From the UHGV virus genome UHGV-0040703: 12,371 nt of DNA; one strand, 5' to 3'. Below the pieces are notes generated by a model. It saw nothing but the letters and a program-made list of their open reading frames with translations, had not been told where the DNA came from and ran no database searches. Every line of letters starts with the position of its first letter. Position 1 is the stretch's first letter. Shown here in pieces: positions 58-11,772 of the stretch. The stretch is from a virus. The position numbers and the translations under genes are program-made.

Positions 58-124
58 CCCCCAATGGCAACCACTCAACCTCAACCCCATCCAGCAATTT
101 TTCCAGATAACTCATCTCGCTCAT
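58..124 (-). pseudogene. hsdS: 5' remnant of a type I specificity subunit gene (hsdS), 22 codons, truncated by the IS end
   Basis: Minus-strand ATG at 124..122 overlaps the hsdM stop (ATGA) and encodes [22 protein letters not shown], which matches the recalled EcoR124-type HsdS N-terminus. The frame runs straight into the IS IR, then stops after 3 codons. Confidence 0.55.
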
Positions 125-1683
125 TTCTGCACCTCGCAGCCTTCAATTTCAGCCACAATCGCATCAATATCTTTGCGCAACTGGTCGATTTTGCTGACCG
201 TGGTTTTCAGTTCTGCATTCAACTCAGCGATATCGATAATTTCGCGAGTATCTTTCGCTTCCACATAGCTGCTCACTGACAGGTTATAGTCATTAGCGAC
301 AACGGTCTCAAACGCGACAGATTTCGCCAGATGAGCAACATCTTCCTTGCTGGCAAATACCTGCATAATCTGTTCGATATGGGCATCGGTCAGGATATTG
401 TTGTTAGTCTCTTTTTTGAATAGCTCGCTGGCGTCAATAAACTGAACGTTGGTATCGGTTTTATGTTTAGACAGCACCAGAATGTTTACGGCAATGGTGG
501 TGCCAAAGAACAGGTTCGGAGCCAGTGAAATCACGGTTTCGACATAGTTATTATCGACCAGATACTGACGGATTTTCTGCTCCGCGCCGCCACGGTAAAA
601 AATACCCGGGAAGCAGACAATCGCAGCACGACCTTTGGCCGAAAGATAGTTCAGCGCATGTAATACAAACGCAAAGTCAGCTTTGGATTTGGGGGCCAGA
701 ACGCCAGCCGGGGCAAAACGTTCATCGTTAATCAGCGTCGGGTCATCGCTGCCAATCCATTTCACCGAATACGGCGGGTTAGAAACGATGGCATCAAACG
801 GTTTTTCATCTCTGAAGTGCGGTTCAGTCAGCGTATTGCCCAGCTTGATATCAAACTTGTCGTAGTTGATGTTGTGCAAAAACATGTTCATACGCGCCAG
901 GTTATAGGTCGTATGGTTGATTTCCTGACCAAAAAAACCTTCTTCGATGATATGGTCATCAAACTGTTTTTTAGCCTGCAACAACAGCGAACCGGAGCCT
1001 GCTGCCGGGTCGTAGATTTTGTTAACGTGGGTCTGCCCGTGCATAGCCAGTTGTGCAATCAGCTTAGAGACGTGCTGCGGTGTAAAGAACTCGCCGCCTG
1101 ACTTACCGGCATTTGCCGCATAGTTAGAGATCAGGAACTCATAGGCATCACCGAACAGGTCAATCTGATGTTCGTTGAAGTCACCAAGTTTTAACCCTTC
1201 AACCCCTTTCAGAACCGCAGCCAGGCGGGCATTTTTATCTTTAACGGTGTTACCCAGGCGGTTACTGGTGGTATCGAAATCAGCAAACAAACCTTTGATG
1301 TCAGCTTCTGAAGGATAACCGTAAGCAGAACTTTCGATAGCAACGAAGATGCTGTTTAAATCTGCATTCAGTCTGTCATTGGTATTTGCTTTCGCAGCCA
1401 CGTTGCAGAAAAGCTGACTTGGGTAGATGAAGTAGCCTTTGGTTTTGATGGCATCGTCTTTAATGTCATCAGTAATTACGCTGTCATCCAGTTTCGCATA
1501 ACAGATACTGTCATCACCGGCTTCAATATAACTGGAAAAATTTTCGCTGATAAAACGGTAGAAAAGTGCGCCCAGAACGTATTGCTTAAAATCCCATCCA
1601 TCGACCGAACCCCTGACATCGTTAGCAATTTGCCAGATTTGACGATGAAGCTCTGCACGTTGTTGAATACTTGTCATTTTCAT
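121..1683 (-). CDS. hsdM: Type I restriction-modification DNA methyltransferase subunit HsdM (N6-adenine), EcoR124-like type IC family
   Basis: 520-aa ORF with AdoMet-binding motif [10 protein letters not shown] and catalytic NPPY (in SNPPYSVKW). N-terminus [25 protein letters not shown] matches the recalled R124-family HsdM. Its stop overlaps the hsdS start. Confidence 0.9.
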
Positions 1684-1853: not shown

Positions 1854-1859
1854 GTGTTT

Positions 1860-2081
1860 ATGCAATCCATTAACTTCCGTACCGCGCGTGGCAACCTTTC
1901 TGAAGTGCTCAACAATGTTGAGGCCGGGGAAGAGGTTGAAATCACCCGCAGAGGCCGTGAGCCAGCAGTAATTGTCAGCAAGGCTACTTTCGAAGCCTAC
2001 AAAAAAGCGGCGCTGGATGCTGAATTTGCATCCCTGTTTGACACCCTGGACTCCACCAACAAGGAACTGGTTAACCGATAA
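1860..2081 (+). CDS. phd: Phd antitoxin (prevent host death), 73 aa
   Basis: Translation [49 protein letters not shown]... matches recalled P1 Phd. Its stop overlaps the doc start (TAATG). Confidence 0.95.
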
Positions 2082-2461
2082 TGAGGCATATATCACCGGA
2101 AGAACTTATTGCGCTTCATGATGCGAATATAAACCGCTACGGCGGCCTGCCGGGAATGTCAGATCCGGGTAGGGCAGAGGCCATTATCGGGAGAGTTCAG
2201 GCCAGAGTTGCCTACGAAGAGATCACCGACCTTTTCGAAGTCTCCGCCACCTACCTGGTGGCTACGGCGAGAGGGCATATATTCAATGATGCCAATAAGC
2301 GTACCGCGCTAAACAGTGCGCTGTTATTTCTACGCCGTAACGGGGTGCAGGTATTTGATTCACCTGAACTGGCAGACCTTACCGTAGGGGCTGCGACTGG
2401 CGAGATATCTGTATCTTCTGTCGCCGCCACGTTACGTAGATTGTATGGTTCTGCGGAGTAG
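2081..2461 (+). CDS. doc: Doc toxin (death on curing; Fic-fold kinase targeting EF-Tu), 126 aa
   Basis: 126-aa [28 protein letters not shown]... translationally coupled to phd; matches recalled P1 Doc. Confidence 0.95.
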
Positions 2462-2672: not shown

Positions 2673-3716
2673 GTGAAAGCCGTAATTACTCCCTTTGTAC
2701 AGAAAGAGCTTGGCCTCGCCACGTTCAAAGTGGATCAGGAGGTCAGAAAGCTGGTGGAGGCTGGCCGTAAATTTATTATGGAGCCGGTGCCGCGTGAGTT
2801 AATCGAGCACATGGAAGACGGCCTCGTTGTTACCGAGCAAACCATGGCAACAAATGAGGCGTTGCAGCCGTTTTTTAACAGCGATGAACTGTTTCGCCGT
2901 ATTGGTGGAATTGACGCGCTGGTGGCGTGGTTGCGTAGGAAAGAGGGTCAATGCCAGGCCGCAGATCGTAGTTGGTGTGACAACCATATTGTCCACGCTG
3001 AACGAGACAATAGCGCTGTGTTGTTGTGCTGGCATCACGATAACCATTACCGGATGCGTGGTTTTAATGAGCTGAAAGAAACGCTGCACAATAATCGCGT
3101 TAACTGGATACTGGATGTCGCCCGTCAGGAAATGGGCCTTTCAAATAGCCATGATTTAAGTATTCAGGAGCTGTGCTGGTGGGCTTTCATGCGCAACATG
3201 ATGCACCTGATGCCGGAAGAAGTCTGCCGCATATCAATAAATAAGATGAAGGCTACTCCGCAGGATAGCGGACCTCTGAAAGAGGCGGATATTCGCCCGT
3301 ATGACGATCGCGCTACAGCATATGTTCAGATGATGGAAGAACGCGCCGCGCCGATGCGTGCAAAAGTATGCCCTGTGGATGTTGACTCCGACCCAGGTAT
3401 GGCGCATTTCAAAATACCAAAACTTCAATCGCTAAAATTGCCCGAGTACATGGACTTTGTGGCTTCCCGTCCATGCTGTGGCTGTGGAGCTGCGGGAGCT
3501 GGCGCTCACATTACGCCTTATATCGTTCGTCATAGTCGATTATGCGCGCATGACATTTATGCTATTCCTCTGTGCCAGTCATGCCAGCGTGATATTGAGC
3601 GTGACCGCGATAATTGGGAGAAGACGCACGGCAGGCTGGCGATGCATCAACGATTGTTCTTTGATTACGCGCTTGGAGTCGGCGCTATCACAAGTCACTC
3701 GTCGAGCGTTAGATAA
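2673..3716 (+). CDS. pdcA: Post-doc protein PdcA-like, 347 aa, with two Cys/His-rich clusters (possible zinc-binding, HNH-like)
   Basis: GTG start at 2673 with upstream AAAGGTG. Long ORF with Cys/His clusters around residues 94-125 and 270-305. Assigned by synteny between doc and lpa. Confidence 0.65.
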
Positions 3717-3804: not shown

Positions 3805-4257
3805 ATGTTACTTAACTGGCAGGGACGCCACTTCATGGAAATAAATCACTCACGAATAACATCGTACGAGATTGCGGATTACATGATCCGCACTAAATCT
3901 CTTCTATCAGCGAAAGAACTCGCAGCAATTCTTGAAAAGGAATACCCGCATCTGGATGTCGATAAGCGCGATGTTTATCTGCGCTTAAAGGCTATCGCTG
4001 TGTCTAAGTATTCGTCTGTTTTGATTGATGACAGTACACGCCCACGTAGATTTCAGATCCACTCTCTGAATCCTGAATTCTTTCGCCGTAGCCGCGCTCC
4101 GCGCCGGTTTGATGAAAAACTCCAGAACGAACTCTATATGACGCAGGACGAAAAGGAACGCCGGGAGCACCAGCCTTGGGTAATGGCGCGTCAACTTTTC
4201 AATAAGGTGGCCCGTCAGCACCGTCATTACGGTAATGCCACATCCGCACGTATCTGA
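3805..4257 (+). CDS. lpa: Late promoter activator Lpa (gene 10 product), about 150 aa
   Basis: ORF MLLNWQGRHFMEINHSRITSYEIADYMIRTK... with AGGTGA SD before the ATG at 3805 (alternative in-frame ATG at 3835). Position between pdcA and pacA and an upstream C1 operator fit P1 lpa. Confidence 0.8.
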   Translation: MLLNWQGRHFMEINHSRITSYEIADYMIRTKSLLSAKELAAILEKEYPHLDVDKRDVYLRLKAIAVSKYSSVLIDDSTRPRRFQIHSLNPEFFRRSRAPRRFDEKLQNELYMTQDEKERREHQPWVMARQLFNKVARQHRHYGNATSARI

Positions 4258-4343: not shown

Positions 4344-5537
4344 GTGACCTGGGACGATCACAAGAAGAATTTTGCTCGCCTGGCGCGAGATGGTGGTTAC
4401 ACCATCGCACAATATGCCGCCGAGTTTAATCTCAACCCAAACACCGCACGTCGTTATCTCCGTGCATTCAAAGAAGACACCGGAACAGCGGACAGCCGTA
4501 AGCCAAATAAGCCTGTCAGAAAACCACTAAAAAGCATGATCATTGATCACGCTAATGATCAACGTGCAAGTGATCACATTGTGGCTGAAATGGCTGAAAA
4601 ACAAAGAGTTAATGCTGTTGTCAGTGCCGCAGTCGAGAACGCTAAGCGCCAAAATAAGCGCATAAATGATCGTTCTGATGATCATGACGTGATCACCCGC
4701 GCCCACCGGACCTTACGTGATCGCCTGGAACGCGACACCCTGGATGATGATGGTGAACGCTTTGAATTCGAAGCTGGCGATTACCTGATAGATAACGTTG
4801 AAGCGCGGAAGGCCGCGCGCGCTATGTTGCGTCGATCCGGGGCCGATGTTCTGGAAACCACTCTTCTGGAAAAGTCTCTTTCTCATCTCCTTATGCTGGA
4901 GAACGCCAGGGATACGTGTATTCGCCTGGTGCAGGAAATGCGCGATCAGCAAAAAGACGATGATGAAGGTACTCCGCCTGAATACCGTATCGCGAGCATG
5001 CTAAACAGCTGTTCCGCGCAGATAAGCAGTCTGATCAACACCATTTACAGCATCCGGAATAACTATCGAAAAGAAAGCCGGGAGGCGGAAAAGCACGCTT
5101 TGTCTATGGGGCAAGCTGGCATTGTTAAGCTGGCATACGAACGAAAGCGTGAAAATAACTGGTCAGTGCTGGAAGCAGCTGAATTCATCGAGGCGCATGG
5201 CGGGAAAGTGCCGCCCCTGATGCTGGAGCAAATCAAAGCCGATCTGCGTGCTCCTAAGACCAATACCGATGATGAGGAAAGGCAAACAGCCGTCGGTGGC
5301 CCTTCTCTTGAAGATCTGGACAAAGTTGCGCGAGAACGGGCCGCCAACCGCCGCGCCGATGCCGCATTGTGGATTGAGCAGCGTAGGGAAGAAATCGCCG
5401 ATATCGTTGATACAGGCGGTTATGGAGATGTTGATACTGAAGGTGTATCAAACGACCCATGGCTGGAACAAGACCTGGACGAAGACGAGGAGGAAGACGA
5501 AGAAGTTACCCGCAAGCTATACGGGGATGATGATTAA
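4344..5537 (+). CDS. pacA: Packaging protein PacA (pacase/terminase small subunit), 397 aa
   Basis: GTG start with AAAGGAAG SD; translation [39 protein letters not shown]... The pac hexamer repeats lie inside its 5' portion, as in P1. Confidence 0.9.
4544..4733 (+). repeat. P1 pac site: seven TGATCA/TGATCG hexamers (each with a Dam GATC) in clusters of 3 and 4
   Basis: Hexamers at 4544, 4556, 4571 and at 4667, 4679, 4690, 4728. The 3+4 arrangement flanking the cleavage region matches the described P1 pac site. Confidence 0.85.
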
Positions 5538-7021
5538 TGGCCAGAAGTTGCGTAACGGATCCACGTTGGCGCGAGTTGGTGGCGCTATATCGTTATGACT
5601 GGATTGCGGCCGCTGATGTTTTGTTCGGCAAAACACCTACCTGGCAGCAGGATCTGATTATTGAGTCTGTGCAGGAACAGGGTAGCAAGACATCTGTTTC
5701 GTCTGGTCACGGTACCGGGAAATCAGACATGACTTCTATCATGATCATGTTGTTCATAATCATGTATCCCGGTGCCCGTGCCATTATCGTTGCGAACAAA
5801 ATTCAGCAGGTAATGACCGGTATATTCAAGTACATCAAGATAAACTGGGCTACGGCCACCAGCCGTTTTCCGTGGCTTGCTGATTATTTTGTTCTGACAG
5901 AAACCGCTTTTTATGAAGTTACTGGTAAAGGTGTATGGACTGTAGTACCGAAGGGCTTTCGTCTGGGAAGTGAATAAGCTCTCGCAGGTGAACACGCAGA
6001 TCATCTTCTGTATATTATCGATGAAGCCTCCGGTGTCAGTGATAGAGCTTTCGGTATCATCACCGGTGCTCTTACCGGACAGGATAACCGCATCTTATTG
6101 CTGTCACAGCCTACACGCCCAAGCGGCTATTTCTACGATACTCACCATAAACTGGCCAAGCGTCCTGGTAACCCTGATGGCGTTTATACGGCGATCACGC
6201 TTAACAGTGAGGAATCACCGCTGGTAACGCCAGCATTTATCAAAATGAAGCTGGCGGAGTACGGCGGGCGTGATAACCCTATGTACATGATTAAGGTACG
6301 CGGACTATTCCCTAAATCACAGGATGGCTTCCTTCTTGGACGTGATGAGGTTGAACGTGCGACGCGGCGGAAAGTCAAGATTGCCAAAGGATGGGGCTGG
6401 CTTGCATGTGTGGACGTTGCTGGTGGTACGGGACGGGATAAGTCCGTTATCAATATCATGATGGTGTCCGGCCAGAGAAATAAACGCCGTGTAATCAACT
6501 ATCGAATGCTGGAATACACAGACGTTACAGAAACGCAGCTTGCCGCCAAAATTTTCGCAGAATGTAATCCTGAGCGATTCCCAAATATCACCATAGCGAT
6601 AGACGGCGATGGCCTGGGTAAAGCAACGGCGGATCTGATGTACGAGTATTATGGTATTACCGTACAGCGTATACGCTGGGGTAAAAAGATGCATAGCCGT
6701 GAAGATAAGAGCCTGTACTTTGATAAACGTGCTTATGCCAACGTTCAAGCCGCAGAGGCCGTAAAATCTGGTCGTATGAGACTGGATAAGGGTAATGAAA
6801 CTATTGAGGAAGCGTCGAAAATCCCTGTAGGGATTAACTCCGCGGGTCAATGGAAAGTGATGAGTAAGGAGGATATGAAGAAAAAACTCAACCTGCACTC
6901 ACCAGACCATTGGGATACATATTGTTTCGCTATGCTGGCGGATTATGTTCCTCAGGATGAAGTGCTTAGCGTCGAAGACGAAGCGCAGGTTGATGAAGCT
7001 CTGGCATGGCTTAATGAATGA
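5537..7021 (+). pseudogene. pacB: pacB (terminase large subunit), interrupted by an in-frame TAA at 5975..5977
   Basis: One frame from 5537 to 7021 gives 494 codons, but codon 147 is TAA (..GFRLGSE*). The N-terminal fragment carries Walker A-like SGHGTGKS; the same frame resumes after the stop with [20 protein letters not shown] (Walker B). The ORF track splits it into 5537..5977 and 6098..7021. Confidence 0.75.
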
Positions 7022-7024
7022 ACA

Positions 7025-7067
7025 TTTGCTCTAATGAATTGTGTTTTTTAACTACCGATGTTACATT
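7025..7067 (+). promoter_or_regulatory. C1 operator-like 17-mer overlapping a candidate sigma70 promoter reading rightward
   Basis: TTTGCTCTAATGAATTG (7025..7041) matches 14 of 17 consensus positions. -35 TTGTGT (7039..7044), 17-bp spacer, -10 TACATT (7062..7067). Confidence 0.5.
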
Positions 7068-7173
7068 GAACCTGACCTCTTGCGCCTTGAGGCATTTTCG
7101 GTTTATGCTTATCAGGCACCTCATTAAAACGGGTGCCGGGATTGAGACCCCGGATAATGCAAAAGGCGACACA

Positions 7174-7195
7174 GACGCCAAAAGCGTCTTTTTTT
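7174..7195 (+). terminator. Rho-independent terminator (plus-strand)
   Basis: Stem AGACGC/GCGTCT around loop CAAAA, followed by T7 (7189..7195). Confidence 0.6.
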
Positions 7196-7221
7196 GTGTC
7201 ATGCCATCGCACAGCCATACG

Positions 7222-7340
7222 TAGCGTTTAGCTCAGAGATCAATGGTAGTGCTGGCTGGGCTGCCGAAAGGCAGGCCGGTTCCCTTTTGCGCCGGTAGTC
7301 TCAACCCAGTCAGTGCTACCGCCATTGAGATTGAGACCTC
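7222..7340 (+). ncRNA. Candidate structured regulatory RNA (c4-type antisense RNA candidate) upstream of the small ORF/antirepressor pair
   Basis: Long imperfect helix 7241..7260 with 7304..7326; internal GNRA hairpin CTGCC-GAAA-GGCAG (7261..7274); tRNA-like TAGCTCAG at 7229..7236. Two segments complement the downstream translation-initiation region: CCTTTTGC (7284..7291) with the SD GCAAAAGG (7362..7369), and CAATGG (7241..7246) with CCATTG (7376..7381) at the start codon. Confidence 0.4.
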
Positions 7341-7380
7341 ACGCGGTAGCTCCTTAAATTAGCAAAAGGAGGCTGCCATT

Positions 7381-7602
7381 GTGGCTACTATCCCTACCCC
7401 TGCTCATTCTGAATTTATCTGGCGCTTTTACTCCTGCCAAAAACGTCACTATCACTTCGTTATTGCACCGACAGAAGATGAGGCACGTTCTCAGCTTCCG
7501 GATGCTCCCTGTATTTTCTCTGCCCGCTTTTCTACCGATTCGCGCAATTCTCTCAGTTACTGGTGCCTCCCTATTAACGCTTCTGCTCAGGAGGGACTAT
7601 GA
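7381..7602 (+). CDS. Small protein, 73 codons, translationally coupled to the downstream antirepressor-like gene (icd-like position in an immI-type operon)
   Basis: GTG at 7381 eight nt after AAGGAGG (7366..7372); its stop overlaps the next ATG (ATGA at 7599..7602). An overlapping TTG-initiated frame (7379..7624) is the alternative. Confidence 0.45.
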   Translation: MATIPTPAHSEFIWRFYSCQKRHYHFVIAPTEDEARSQLPDAPCIFSARFSTDSRNSLSYWCLPINASAQEGL

Positions 7603-8711
7603 GAACGTCATTAGTCACCCGTGAAGAGATGATCGAGGCAATTGAACAGCACACTGCCTGTATCAGTACCAGGGATATACCGGGCGTTATTGCCAACTAC
7701 TTCATGATCACCAAACAACTTTACCGGAGAAAGGACAAACACGCGGTTCACCGCATTCTGCTAACCGATATCCGTGAATACCTGCTCGAACAGGGTCATC
7801 TGAATTACGCAACCGTCGCAGCCGAAGCACGCAAGGAGGCACACAGAATGAAAGCAACTAACGTTAAATCAGAAAAAATTTATGCACCTTCAGTTCAGGA
7901 ATCGGAACTGGTGGTTGTTCAGAATCAGCCGGATGAAATTCCCGTTCTGGAATGGCAGGGAGTACGTGTCGTGACAACCGAAACTCTTGCTAGAGGGTAT
8001 GGGGTCGATGAAGCCAATATTCGCAACAATTTGTCTCGCAACCTTGACCGCTTTGAAGAAGGTAAGCATTACTTTCTTCTAACTGGTTTAAAATTAAGAG
8101 AATTTAAGAACAGAGTAACCGGAAGTTACTCTGTTGGTAAGAACGCCAGAAGCCTTACACTCTGGACAGAGCGCGGCGCTGCACGCATGTCTAAGATCGT
8201 GGACACAAATGAAGCATGGGCATTCTTTGAAAAACTGGAAGACAGCTACTTCCGGCAAAAAGAACAGCAACCGGTTGCAATCCCCCAAACATTACCAGAA
8301 GCCCTACGCCTGGCTGCCGAACTGGCTGAACAAAAGCAGCTTCTGGAACAGAAAGCCCACCAGCTAAATCAGCAGCTGGTAGCCGCCGCTCCTAAGGTCG
8401 ATTTTGCCGACCGGGTATCAGTAGCTAAAGGGATCCTGATTGGGAATTTTGCAAAGGTTGTTGGACTTAAGCAAAACGCGCTGTTTGCCTGGTTACGGGA
8501 GAACGGCATCCTGATAGCGTCCGGTGGACGTAAAAATGTGCCGTTCCAGCAGTACATCAACGCGGGGTATTTCACGGTGAAAGAAGTGGTGCTGGATGAT
8601 GAAGATGGCTACCAGATACGGTTGACGCCTCAATTAACGGGTAAAGGCCAGCAGTGGTTGACGCGTAAACTGCTCGATGCTGGCTTGTTAAAACCGGTGG
8701 CGGCTGAATAA
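7599..8711 (+). CDS. ant: Antirepressor-like protein: ORF6N/KilA-N-type domain plus C-terminal KilAC domain, 370 aa, with nested in-frame start at 7848 (287 aa); Ant1/Ant2-type arrangement
   Basis: AGGAGG SD before the ATG at 7599; second strong SD AAGGAGG (7833..7839) before the in-frame ATG at 7848. Middle region VLEWQGVRVVTTETLARGYGVDEANI... resembles the ORF6N/Bro-N fold; C-terminal LPEALRLAAELAEQKQ...FADRVSVAKGILIGNFAKVVGLKQNALFAWLRENGIL...YINAGYFTVKEV resembles the KilAC signature. Confidence 0.65.
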   Translation: MRTSLVTREEMIEAIEQHTACISTRDIPGVIANYFMITKQLYRRKDKHAVHRILLTDIREYLLEQGHLNYATVAAEARKEAHRMKATNVKSEKIYAPSVQESELVVVQNQPDEIPVLEWQGVRVVTTETLARGYGVDEANIRNNLSRNLDRFEEGKHYFLLTGLKLREFKNRVTGSYSVGKNARSLTLWTERGAARMSKIVDTNEAWAFFEKLEDSYFRQKEQQPVAIPQTLPEALRLAAELAEQKQLLEQKAHQLNQQLVAAAPKVDFADRVSVAKGILIGNFAKVVGLKQNALFAWLRENGILIASGGRKNVPFQQYINAGYFTVKEVVLDDEDGYQIRLTPQLTGKGQQWLTRKLLDAGLLKPVAAE

Positions 8712-8718
8712 TGGAAGA

Positions 8719-8740
8719 ATGCCCGGTTGATGCCGGGCAT
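8719..8740. terminator. Hairpin between the convergent antirepressor-like gene and c1 (probable bidirectional terminator)
   Basis: 8-bp stem ATGCCCGG/CCGGGCAT with a 6-nt loop, flanked by AATTTATT on the plus strand and TCTTCCATTATT on the minus strand; lies between the stop codons at 8709..8711 and 8744..8746. Confidence 0.5.
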
Positions 8741-8743
8741 AAT

Positions 8744-9595
8744 TTATTGCGCGCTTTCGGGGTTGTCGTTTACTGGCTGCCCCTTCTTGGTTTTACGGCT
8801 GCGCGTAACTGATGCGGCTGACTTAACCTTTTTCTCTTCGCGAGTGATGGCAATTTGTTTTTTTACATTTTCAATATCTGCCAGGCGATATATTTTTGCT
8901 TGCGGCCAGCGGTCGCAGATGATCGGTTCTATGGAGTCATAAAGGCTAAATTTTGCTTTTTCGAATTCACCGTTGATGATAATTCCATCACGGAGAGTTT
9001 CATCGCAGATAAACACGCCACACAGTGGCACATGGTAACTAACTGATTTACCATCATTGTAGTTAGGGCTACTGGAAATGTAGTGGACGCGCAGCATTGT
9101 TTCGCTAAAGCCGTGTACGCGCATACGGAATTTTTCATCCTCCGGGTACTGCTTCATTAGCTCTTTTGTTGCTTCCAGGTTCTCTATGTATTTCGCACTG
9201 TGCTCATTGATCCCCGCGCTTTTTTGGATGCGAATATCCTTATCAATCAGATGAATAATGCGGCCAGCGGTCATGTTGACGCTGTTCACAGCCTCTGTCT
9301 GATAAGTTGTAACCTTACGCACACCGCGAAGGATGTTAGGCACTGGATATAAAATAGTCTTTGGGATATTGAGGTCTGGGTACTGTTCCAGTTCCCGCGC
9401 CATTAAAGTCCATTTATCAATTTCAGCCTGAATGCTGTCAGTTTCTTTGAACGGTAGAACGACAACCGGGCGTACAGGACGACCGTCGCTGGCTGTATCA
9501 ACGTGTTGGGCGCGTGCAACAGCTTTTTTTAGAAAGAGATCCCTGAAGCTGACGAACTCCTGGTACAGTTGTTCGCCGTAGACATAATTTATCAT
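8744..9595 (-). CDS. c1: C1 repressor of lysis (primary immunity repressor), 283 aa
   Basis: Translation MINYVYGEQLYQEFVSFRDLFLKKAVARAQHVDTASDGRPVRPVVVLPFKETDSIQAEIDKWTL... matches recalled P1 C1; 283 aa as in P1. Confidence 0.95.
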   Translation of the reverse strand: MINYVYGEQLYQEFVSFRDLFLKKAVARAQHVDTASDGRPVRPVVVLPFKETDSIQAEIDKWTLMARELEQYPDLNIPKTILYPVPNILRGVRKVTTYQTEAVNSVNMTAGRIIHLIDKDIRIQKSAGINEHSAKYIENLEATKELMKQYPEDEKFRMRVHGFSETMLRVHYISSSPNYNDGKSVSYHVPLCGVFICDETLRDGIIINGEFEKAKFSLYDSIEPIICDRWPQAKIYRLADIENVKKQIAITREEKKVKSAASVTRSRKTKKGQPVNDNPESAQ

Positions 9596-9689: not shown

Positions 9690-9706
9690 AGATTTATTAG
9701 TGCATT
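9690..9706 (-). promoter_or_regulatory. C1 operator-like site between coi and c1
   Basis: AGATTTATTAGTGCATT matches 14 of 17 positions of the reverse-complement consensus AAATTTATTAGAGCAAT. Confidence 0.4.
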
Positions 9707-9915
9707 TATTGTGAGTCTAACTGGTTAGTTGCCATGAGATATTCGATTGTGTCAGTGAGGTCATCCAGGTCGTCTTGGGTGATGCGGTACTCCTGATTGG
9801 ATATCTTTGAGTAGTGTTCAGCAATGGCGCGGGCAGCGTCGGTTTCGGCAGGGTCTACAGATAAAGCGTTAGAGCAATGTCTAACGTCGTCGATGGTTGG
9901 TTGAATGAAAGCCAT
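9706..9915 (-). CDS. coi: Coi, C1 inactivator, 69 aa
   Basis: 69-aa ORF MAFIQPTIDDVRHCSNALSVDPAETDAARAIAEHYSK... immediately upstream of c1 on the same strand, as in P1 immC. Confidence 0.85.
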   Translation of the reverse strand: MAFIQPTIDDVRHCSNALSVDPAETDAARAIAEHYSKISNQEYRITQDDLDDLTDTIEYLMATNQLDSQ

Positions 9916-10740: not shown

Positions 10741-11772
10741 ATGTCCAATTTACTGACCGTACACCAAAATTTGCCTGCATTACCGGTCGATGCAACGAGT
10801 GATGAGGTTCGCAAGAACCTGATGGACATGTTCAGGGATCGCCAGGCGTTTTCTGAGCATACCTGGAAAATGCTTCTGTCCGTTTGCCGGTCGTGGGCGG
10901 CATGGTGCAAGTTGAATAACCGGAAGTGGTTTCCCGCAGAACCTGAAGATGTTCGCGATTATCTTCTATATCTTCAGGCGCGCGGTCTGGCAGTGAAAAC
11001 TATCCAGCAACATTTGGGCCAGCTAAATATGCTTCATCGTCGGTCCGGGCTGCCACGACCAAGTGACAGCAATGCTGTTTCACTGGTCATGCGACGGATC
11101 CGAAAAGAAAACGTTGATGCCGGTGAGCGTGCAAAACAGGCGCTGGCGTTCGAACGCACTGATTTCGACCAGGTTCGTTCACTCATGGAAAATAGCGATC
11201 GCTGCCAGGATATACGTAATCTGGCATTTCTGGGGATTGCTTATAACACCCTGTTACGTATAGCCGAAATTGCCAGGATCAGAGTTAAAGATATCTCACG
11301 TACTGACGGTGGGAGAATGTTAATCCATATTGGCAGAACGAAAACGCTGGTTAGCACCGCTGGTGTAGAGAAGGCACTTAGTCTGGGGGTAACTAAACTG
11401 GTTGAGCGATGGATTTCTGTCTCTGGTGTGGCTGATGATCCGAATAACTACTTGTTTTGCCGTGTCAGAAAAAATGGTGTTGCCGCGCCATCTGCCACCA
11501 GCCAGCTATCAACTCGCGCCCTGGAAGGGATTTTTGAAGCAACTCACCGATTGATTTACGGGGCTAAGGATGACTCTGGCCAGAGGTACCTGGCCTGGTC
11601 TGGACACAGTGCCCGTGTCGGAGCCGCGCGAGATATGGCCCGCGCCGGAGTTTCAATACCGGAGATCATGCAAGCTGGTGGCTGGACCAACGTAAATATT
11701 GTCATGAACTATATCCGTAACCTGGATAGTGAAACAGGGGCAATGGTGCGCCTGCTGGAAGATGGCGATTAG
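10741..11772 (+). CDS. cre: Cre tyrosine site-specific recombinase, 343 aa
   Basis: Translation MSNLLTVHQNLPALPVDATSDEVRKNLMDMFRDRQAFSEHTWKMLLSVCRSWAAWCKLNNRKWFPAEPEDVRDYLLYLQARGLAVKTIQQHLGQLNMLHRRSGLPRPSDSNAVSLVMRRIRKENVDAGERAKQALAFERTDFDQVRSLMENSDRCQDIRNLAFLGIAYNTLLRIAEIARIRVKDISRTDGGRMLIHIGRTKTLVSTAGVEKALSLGVTKLVERWISVSGVADDPNNYLFCRVRKNGVAAPSATSQLSTRALEGIFEATHRLIYGAKDDSGQRYLAWSGHSARVGAARDMARAGVSIPEIMQAGGWTNVNIVMNYIRNLDSETGAMVRLLEDGD is P1 Cre. Confidence 0.98.
   Translation: MSNLLTVHQNLPALPVDATSDEVRKNLMDMFRDRQAFSEHTWKMLLSVCRSWAAWCKLNNRKWFPAEPEDVRDYLLYLQARGLAVKTIQQHLGQLNMLHRRSGLPRPSDSNAVSLVMRRIRKENVDAGERAKQALAFERTDFDQVRSLMENSDRCQDIRNLAFLGIAYNTLLRIAEIARIRVKDISRTDGGRMLIHIGRTKTLVSTAGVEKALSLGVTKLVERWISVSGVADDPNNYLFCRVRKNGVAAPSATSQLSTRALEGIFEATHRLIYGAKDDSGQRYLAWSGHSARVGAARDMARAGVSIPEIMQAGGWTNVNIVMNYIRNLDSETGAMVRLLEDGD

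Follow-up and report, generated by a model that had tools for sequence, protein, structure and literature searches.

The antirepressors Ant1 and Ant2, encoded by bacteriophage P1 in its immI operon, antagonise the C1 repressor. Their synthesis is blocked by the antisense RNA C4, which pairs around a ribosome-binding site; the small gene icd is needed for ant expression, and the heteroimmunity of P1 and P7 stems from a difference in the pairing code of C4 (PMC8546580, PMC8201110, PMC12197685). Icd is a cell-division inhibitor in P1, and icd is also the upstream cistron required for ant translation. The C4 RNA of P1 is cut from a precursor by RNase P, and its translational block leads to Rho-dependent polarity. 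Here, we describe an immI-type cassette located between pacB and c1 in a stretch of 12,371 nucleotides from the virus genome UHGV-0040703 (the window), a P1-type phage-plasmid segment whose gene names were taken from matching records. This cassette is probably a second, independently addressed immunity cassette, encoding an Ant1/Ant2-like antirepressor of C1 under double control.

A related arrangement occurs in the Salmonella prophage Gifsy-1, whose isrK-orf45-anrP locus comprises an isrK-family leader with a terminator, then a C4-family RNA and an antirepressor gene with a b2 target at its ribosome site. In Gifsy-1, some transcripts read through the terminator and the long RNA is translationally silent; short IsrK RNA supplied in trans raised antirepressor translation 139-fold, and deletion of the isrK promoter abolished prophage induction of stationary-phase minimal-medium cultures (Hershko-Shalev et al. 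2016, PMC4825925). The base pairs G28-C162 and G31-C159 were proved by compensatory mutation, and the small reading frame 'orf45', which was SPA-tagged for Western analysis, was translationally coupled to anrP (PMC4825925). We found no mention of C4 antisense RNA, phage P1 or immI in the text of PMC4825925. In the Gifsy-1 sequence (NC_010392, L239, minus strand), the Rfam isrK model matched positions 34316-34240 and the C4 model matched positions 34214-34131 (69 bits), which correspond to nucleotides 103-186 of the IsrK transcript and overlap 'orf45'. Numbering from position 1 of the isrK match reproduced the published landmarks A107 and AUG 119-121. The a1 segment of the leader (U26-U32) pairs with the a' segment of the C4-family RNA (A158-A164), while a2 and b2 are found at the anrP ribosome site; because a1 and a' face each other in this way, the two validated pairs are a1-a' pairs.

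An immI-type cassette in the pacB-c1 spacer

In the P1 reference, pacB ends at position 93206 and c1 at position 93231, leaving a gap of 24 nt, and the immI operon is found about 44 kb away, flanked by the sim genes and kilA-repL. In the window, a cassette takes the place of this gap and fills the whole pacB-c1 intergenic space (Table 1). When the junctions were compared, neither end of the cassette showed a target-site duplication or any repeat. The same site was empty, with a spacer of about 24 nt, in P1, P7, SJ46, phiW39 and 813R1. The whole cassette was present at this site in three phages, JL22 (99.5% identical), RCS47 (95%) and vB_EcoM-673R5 (hereafter 673R5; 87.5%), as determined by megablast, and each of the three also carries a complete canonical immI (93-100% identity). 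In JL22, the canonical immI is followed by kilA and repL and includes a second C4 with a leader of the Rfam family RF03163. Among the best 40 plasmid matches, 38 had at least two ant-like places. Because all three carrier phages also hold the canonical immI, the cassette is, as judged by this comparison, an extra copy and not a relocated immI. The earlier note on this DNA, made from the letters alone, had described pacB and c1 as neighbours in P1, with immI at a distant locus followed by kilA-repL, and had proposed a relocated or additional antirepressor module. Its description of P1 was right, alignment with canonical P1 placing the homologous operon at immI and only the short spacer between pacB and c1; of its two proposals, the additional module stood and the relocated one did not.

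IMG/VR was scanned with the conserved 3' end of pacB as the query. Of 90 P1-like contigs with enough flank, 62 had an empty site and 28 (about 31%) carried the cassette. At least 80% of the cassette was found in 308 PLSDB plasmids, among 758 with any match, and at least 80% of its regulatory half in 320 of 5,426 complete Escherichia coli genomes. The best match among these genomes, NZ_CP135649.1 (4058745-4075423), was 100% identical over 7022-7700; it belongs to a chromosome record and adjoins IS903B. The P1-like segment of this record, which is apparently integrated or co-assembled, has an intact pacB and a frameshifted hsdM.

At its pacB-proximal end, the cassette carries a C1 operator-like site. 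With up to three mismatches allowed, six C1-type sites were found in the window, versus 0.07 expected by chance (shuffles). The site in the cassette aligns with the annotated P1 operator Oc4/Op51 and overlaps the inferred -35 element, as in P1; judged by its sequence, it is a putative C1 operator. The other five adjoin lpa, fall within the c1-coi region or are found past cra, places at which P1 has operators. The promoter at the operator-like site aligns with the annotated P1 promoter P2c4/P51a and is presumably C1-repressible. A second, operator-free promoter, which aligns with the P1 promoter P1c4/P51b, is likely; its spacing from the -10 element to the start is the same in D6 and Gifsy-1. 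A generic promoter scan called neither of them, and it called a chance site inside a2-b2; because the scan missed them, both promoters were assigned by positional homology only.

Transcription from the second promoter would yield a leader RNA that matched the full isrK model of Rfam with 59 bits, against a gathering score of 50, a score that was also reached by the leaders of D6 and RCS47. This RNA ends in an intrinsic terminator, which was identified by a terminator scan as a stem at 7173-7189 followed by a run of seven T residues (7190-7196). The window holds both a terminator and an antirepressor operon downstream of it; read-through has been shown in Gifsy-1 only. The leader of the commonest cassette class (L003, from 673R5, 4117-4195) gave a clear isrK-type alignment and kept the terminator, yet scored below the Rfam isrK gathering score. 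A scan of genome contigs for isrK leaders with the 14-mer GGGTGCCGGGATTG returned chance matches in unrelated taxa only. Downstream of the leader is a C4 RNA with a long closing stem, in which 7245-7260 is paired with 7305-7320 (computed fold of -46.4 kcal/mol). This stem is directly followed by a tRNA-like GCCA (7321-7324), which is no more than suggestive of processing of C4 from a precursor.

The first protein-coding gene of the cassette encodes a homologue of Icd that is 81% identical to that of P1, and its end overlaps the start of the next gene in an ATGA at 7599-7602. Along its entire length, the 370-residue product of this second gene is a homologue of P1 Ant1 (57% identity, E = 2e-131). 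Identity was about 65% over residues 1-95 and about 93% over the last 140 residues, the KilAC end, where the ANT/KilAC domain (PF03374) was found at residues 258-359 (1.5e-31; 109 bits against a gathering score of 25.3). The middle of the protein has been swapped for an ORF6N domain (residues 116-200; 2.5e-18; 66.6 bits against a Pfam gathering score of 27.8), which is absent from the Ant1 proteins of P1, P7-type phages and JL22 and occurs widely in the antirepressors of Stx phages and of many further phages (up to 56% identity). The protein is assumed, from these sequence relationships, to be an Ant1-type antirepressor that inactivates C1. An alignment with P1 Ant1/Ant2 showed that the internal Met84, at which Ant2 starts in P1, is conserved in the window. 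A G+C-rich hairpin that separates the convergent ant and c1 genes was conserved in 23 of 23 occupied sites and is probably a two-way terminator, with weak T-tracts on both strands.

From the pacB stop (7021) to the c1 stop (8744), the earlier note had described a complete regulatory unit with the architecture of the P1 immI operon: a C1 operator with promoter (7025..7067), an intrinsic terminator (7174..7195), a structured RNA (7222..7340), a 73-codon open reading frame (ORF) coupled by ATGA to a 370-residue antirepressor-like protein with ORF6N and KilAC domains, and a hairpin (8719..8740). Every one of these elements was recovered at these positions or within a few bases of them, and operator/promoter, c4, icd and ant follow one another in the order of immI. 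The terminator turned out to belong to an isrK-type leader carrying a1 and b1, the structured RNA to be C4, and the 73-codon frame to be the icd homologue, while the two domains were confirmed by profile search and the hairpin was stable on both strands.

Table 1. Position of the cassette elements and of the neighbouring genes in the window.
Feature	Position	Strand	Remarks
Inserted cassette	7022..8743	+	1,722 bp; fills the pacB-c1 intergenic space; junctions aligned with P1
C1 operator-like site	7025..7041	+	TTTGCTCTAATGAATTG; 14 of 17 positions as in the C1 consensus ATTGCTCTAATAAATTT
P2c4/P51a-like promoter (inferred)	7039..7067	+	-35 TTGTGT 7039-7044; 17 nt; TG-extended -10 TACATT 7062-7067
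P1c4/P51b-like promoter, operator-free (inferred)	7080..7109	+	TTGCGC 7080-7085; 18 nt; TATGCT 7104-7109; predicted start G7116
isrK-type leader RNA	7116..7196	+	Rfam RF01394 at 7116-7194
C4 antisense RNA	7239..7326	+	Rfam RF01695; 75 bits (gathering score, 45)
39-codon ORF over C4	7243..7362	+	PGAP 'ash family protein'; AUG in the C4 5' arm; position of Gifsy-1 'orf45'
C4 target on the icd-ant mRNA	7331..7371	+	a2 TTGAGAC 7331-7337; b2 GCAAAAGG 7362-7369
icd homologue	7381..7602	+	73 codons; GTG start; NCBIfam phage_ICD_like, E = 2.4e-13
ant1 homologue	7599..8711	+	370 aa; starts inside the ATGA overlap with icd
Nested ant2-like frame (predicted)	7848..8711	+	287 aa; conserved internal Met84 (ATG 7848); AAGGAGG 7834-7840 upstream
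G+C-rich hairpin	8719..8740	both	9 pairs; -19 kcal/mol on the + strand, -14.6 on the - strand; between convergent ant and c1
Type I methylase gene	121-1683	-	window gene order
phd + doc	1854-2461		window gene order
pdcB, lpa, pacA	between doc and pacB		window gene order
pacB	5537-7021		window gene order
c1	8744-9595	-	window gene order
coi	9706-9915	-	window gene order
cre, then cra	10741-11772 (cre)		window gene order

PGAP also annotates Icd-like and KilAC proteins at the cassette. The coding status of the 39-codon ORF is uncertain; in 673R5-type, Stx and phiP27 copies, this frame is open into the start codon of the downstream gene. Searches of Pfam and NCBIfam gave no match for the ORFs over the leader (7018-7224 on the plus strand and 7011-7202 on the minus strand) or for a +2-frame ORF at 7379-7624, which is annotated as gp121 in JL22. 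These three ORFs were rejected as genes and treated as non-coding overlaps of RNA genes.

The cassette shares with the immI operon of P1 and P7 the order of its parts, a homologous operator/promoter region, a C4 that falls into the same Rfam family, two copies of the targets (one upstream, the other at the ribosome site of icd), the ATGA coupling of icd and ant, the Icd and Ant1 homologues, the conserved Ant2 start and the nearly identical KilAC end. It differs in its location, since P1 immI is found between sim and kilA-repL whereas the cassette occupies the pacB-c1 spacer and converges on c1. Its leader, which has an intrinsic terminator, belongs to the isrK type and not, as in P1, to the RF03163 type; moreover, it has a different a'/b' code, carries ORF6N in the middle of Ant, and coexists with the canonical operon. 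In the icd/anti-repressor locus of phage D6 (orf83-orf82), the leader, C4 and a2/b2 are 95-96% identical to those of the window, and all six a and b segments are identical. The D6 locus differs in having no P1-type C1 operator upstream, a Rha-type antirepressor that is not an Ant1/Ant2 homologue, and another genomic context. D6 (MF356679) carries two c4/icd-type cassettes, at 75117-75444 and 20806-21177, one of the isrK type with the code of the window and the other of the P1 type; the latter is 88.5% identical to the immI of JL22.

Gifsy-1, which has the same succession of leader, terminator, C4-family RNA and antirepressor gene, lacks icd, its antirepressor being coupled to the small ORF over C4. 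It also lacks a C1 operator, is a lambdoid phage, and has another downstream effect (AntQ). The isrK-C4 cassettes of Stx-converting and other lambdoid phages (for example, F039, TL-2011c and phiP27) display the same layout of leader, C4 and target at 68-70% identity, and the a/b codes that they carry show covariation in the same alignment columns; they have a Rha-family regulator downstream, without icd and without a P1-type operator. In over 100 Stx and other lambdoid phages, a Rha-type regulator is preceded by such an isrK-C4 leader. The cassette itself is a mosaic: its stretch 7115-7442 resembles D6 (95% identity), 7409-7723 an icd region of Ro157c2YLVW (96%) and 8361-8695 P1 ant (86%), while the operator/promoter part aligns with P1 immI.

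The pairing code of C4 and its variation

In the C4 RNA of the window, b' (CCTTTTGC, 7283-7290) forms a hairpin loop and a' (GTCTCAA, 7298-7304) an unpaired stretch. Exact complements of a' (7 nt) and b' (8 nt) occur twice, as a1 and b1 in the leader and as a2 and b2 downstream of C4. The a1 segment (TTGAGAC, 7142-7148) is located in the loop of leader hairpin 2, and b1 (GCAAAAGG, 7159-7166) is single-stranded in the leader. The b2 segment overlaps the Shine-Dalgarno sequence of icd (AAGGAGG, 7365-7371), and this overlap was observed in every variant aligned. In P1, b' is TCACTAAC and a' is CTGTCAA, and these are complementary to b2/a2 before icd and to b1/a1 upstream; in P7, the corresponding segments are TCACAATC and CTGCTAA. 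The pairing code of the window is that of phage D6, and is unrelated to the codes of P1, P7 and the canonical locus of JL22. The duplex between the b' loop and its target had a computed energy of -10.8 kcal/mol for the cognate pair versus -2.9 to -5.9 kcal/mol for non-cognate pairs, a gap comparable to the one that separates P1 from P7-type b'. These energies refer to b' only, as comparison of the short a' with whole target regions was uninformative (alternative 6-bp matches). By its sequence, the cassette has an antisense specificity of its own, distinct from those of P1 and P7, which the earlier note had regarded as a possibility: its loops match its own a1/b1 and a2/b2 and differ from those of P1, P7 and the JL22 immI.

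We aligned 20 distinct sequences from the leader to the start codon, including those of three lambdoid phages. Pairing of a' with a2 and of b' with b2 was complete (100%), with 9 of the 15 pairs showing compensatory changes and a covariation score of 0.565 versus 0.167 for shuffles, none of the 500 shuffles reaching as high a value. When the partners were slid along each other, pairing fell to 53% or less. Segments a1/b1 were 99.7% paired with a'/b', again with 9 compensatory pairs out of 15, and the internal helices of C4 were 100% paired, with compensatory changes in 12 pairs. The sole unpaired a1/b1 cell of the alignment came from a recombinant cassette (L069, 5042-5309, minus strand), whose a1 (TTGAGAC) is mismatched with its own a' and a2 (GTTCCAA and TTGGAAC, respectively); this copy is a test case, provided by nature, of what a1 does. 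Sequence variation was concentrated in the six short segments a1, b1, a', b', a2 and b2, a pattern that would be the expected product of selection for new, self-consistent specificities. Because loop, decoy and target change together while 100% pairing is kept, the RNA-RNA interaction must be under continuing selection.

Overall, five pairing codes were observed among 44 copies of the cassette at the pacB-c1 site, so that the site has at least five pairing classes. The most frequent code, that of 673R5, combines b' CCTTGGAC with a' AGGCCAA (22 copies); it is followed by that of the window (b' CCTTTTGC, a' GTCTCAA; 14 copies) and that of RCS47 (b' CCTTTGAC, a' GTCTCAA; 4 copies). The remaining two combine a' GTTCCAA with either b' CCTTTTGC (3 copies) or b' CCTTTGAC (1 copy). 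In a single lineage, each of the two a' variants was found with each of the two b' variants, giving all four combinations. The canonical immI of JL22 has a hybrid code, with a' CTGTCAA as in P1 and b' TCACAATC as in P7 (L007 (JL22), 3396-3660; L240 (P7), 140-500); because of this hybrid, the a and b segments must reassort at the canonical locus too.

Proposed control of the antirepressor and competing explanations

In the mechanism that we propose, the antirepressor would be held under two locks. The first is transcriptional: in a lysogen, C1 bound to the operator-like site would shut the first promoter. The second is post-transcriptional: the operator-free promoter would start transcription at about position 7116, most transcripts would end at the leader terminator, and read-through transcripts would be processed into stable C4 RNA. 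Segments b' and a' of C4 would then pair with b2 and a2 on the mRNA and cover the icd ribosome-binding site, and translation of ant would be blocked as well, because ant starts inside the icd stop codon. The short terminated leader, in which the target is present once more (a1/b1), is probably a decoy able to titrate C4 and switch Ant on; this role is proposed because the homologous IsrK RNA of Gifsy-1 was shown to act in this manner. The threshold of Ant synthesis would depend on the ratio of terminated leader to processed C4, and derepression of the C1-controlled promoter would tip this ratio. A carrier of the cassette would be protected against superinfecting relatives that share its code, and the Ant protein of the cassette would escape repression in cells in which the resident element carries a different code. 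Because the canonical immI of the same replicons has another a'/b' code, and copies at the site differ from one another in theirs, the cassette would define an extra immunity type.

Several points weigh against this mechanism. The case is built on sequence comparison of the cassette and on experiments with homologous systems, and the decoy role is borrowed from a homologue, that of Gifsy-1, without icd and with different spacing. Coexistence with the canonical immI was seen in near-identical relatives and not in the window's own replicon. The operator-like site carries three mismatches to the C1 consensus; one of these, G7036, is restricted to the window and a few other copies, most copies, including JL22, having the consensus A (two mismatches), and it might weaken C1 control in the window copy. 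Both inferred promoters score below the generic consensus scan. Finally, the middle domain of Ant is unlike that of P1 Ant, and because of this difference, C1 is assumed as the target of Ant from the conserved N- and C-terminal parts.

The P4 CI RNA (C4-like, with seqA and seqC) and the N15 CB RNA act by premature transcription termination. As described, they resemble the C4 proposed for the cassette in being small RNAs processed from the leader of the operon that they control, with targets both up- and downstream; compared by description, the cassette is unlike them in that b2 is placed on the Shine-Dalgarno sequence, as in P1. C4 might likewise act mainly by premature termination, pairing with a1/b1 on the nascent leader and with a2/b2, and the leader would then be an attenuator and not a decoy. 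The positions of a1 and b1 directly upstream of the strong terminator (7173-7196) are in line with this view, all the more as this terminator is the precise difference between the isrK-type leader and the P1 leader (RF03163), and control of the N15 antirepressor by a small processed RNA is indicated by the title of a reference. The authors of the Gifsy-1 study drew a parallel between IsrK and P4 seqA, and between the downstream processed RNA and CI, but one test gave no support to this analogy, and constitutive expression of the downstream RNA did not lower IsrK-mediated growth arrest (PMC4825925). In addition, b2 is found on the icd Shine-Dalgarno sequence in every variant, a position that is needed for the translational mechanism of P1 and not for termination control. 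We therefore consider it unlikely that termination is the main mode of action, although termination and a translational block are not mutually exclusive.

That the cassette is the element's only immI, relocated from beside kilA-repL, is very improbable. The window does stop short of the canonical immI region, and 2 of the best 40 plasmid matches had a single ant-like place, but the other 38 had two or more, all three carrier phages hold a full canonical immI, and the leader and C4 of the cassette belong to the D6/isrK lineage, which is separate from the canonical one. It is equally hard to see the cassette as an inert passenger, left behind by recombination from a D6-like or lambdoid phage and neither expressed nor under selection any longer, and we give this explanation very little weight. 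Its mosaic make-up (D6-like leader and C4, Ro157c2-like icd, P1-like ant 3' end) would suit such an origin, as would the extra operator mismatch and the GTG start of icd in the window copy and the premature stop in the adjoining pacB, with which the element may be decaying. Against this, the reading frames of the cassette are all intact in the window, hundreds of plasmids and 320 complete E. coli genomes have retained it, and covariation of loop, decoy and target is seen in five classes with 100% pairing. A toxin-antitoxin reading, with Icd as the toxin and C4 as the antitoxin, was rejected because the C4-family RNA is the stable partner, the opposite of what post-segregational killing needs. 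The C4 RNA of P1 is likewise the stable partner. In Gifsy-1, too, the stable partner is the C4-family RNA (PMC4825925).

The doubly locked antirepressor cassette could also be part of a broader picture, in which the pacB-c1 site is a hypervariable immunity-type locus, the leader is an anti-antisense decoy, and one and the same switch is used across phages; we put this forward tentatively, as a possibility somewhat short of an even chance. The decoy (a1/b1), the loops (a'/b') and the target (a2/b2) may co-evolve and recombine into mutually blind codes. When C1 repression is lifted, a burst of leader RNA may titrate C4, and the cell would then be committed to making Ant. Likewise, P1 c4, the IsrK/STnc1160 pair of Gifsy-1 and the isrK-C4 pairs of Stx phages may be one switch. 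If true, an element bearing two cassettes with different codes would have immunity to a larger number of relatives, and dominance over a larger number of residents, than an element bearing one cassette.

Surrounding genes, previous reports and meaning for P1-like elements

The remainder of the window contains the genes listed in Table 1. The type I restriction-modification methylase gene is intact (520 amino acids) and is found directly upstream of phd/doc. In pacB, the gene of the large terminase, codon 147 (5975-5977) is an in-frame TAA, where JL22, RCS47 and 673R5 have GAA; the element of the window may be unable to package its DNA, or this base may be a sequencing error.

The presence of the cassette is already in print: an 'ant' gene has been annotated at the pacB-c1 site in the RCS47 record since its deposition, and Venturini et al. 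2019 mention the insertion in passing (PMC6906374). In the literature examined, we found no description of its RNA parts, of a complete second immI or of code classes, though older papers on P1, D6, RCS47 or icd may hold one. The cassette is real and common, and belongs to a well-known kind, that of P1 immI, D6 and the IsrK-type locus of Gifsy-1. Its importance is incremental, because the known principle is unchanged. What is added is a full heterospecific second immI, a polymorphic code with three-way covariation, and a leader that ties P1 c4 to the Salmonella IsrK RNA; the data are also a clear case, taken from nature, of three-way RNA covariation.

In E. coli and Salmonella, resistance genes are commonly carried by P1-like phage-plasmids, and immunity decides whether such elements coexist, exclude or induce one another. 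In the textbook picture, a single antirepressor locus, immI, is under antisense control, and P1 and P7 are set apart by its code. A second locus of this kind is present beside the repressor gene in about one third of natural P1-like elements, with at least five codes. Because this second coded locus exists, the true number of immunity types would be the product of two variable loci, and sequence-based predictions of compatibility, superinfection outcome and induction should weigh both.

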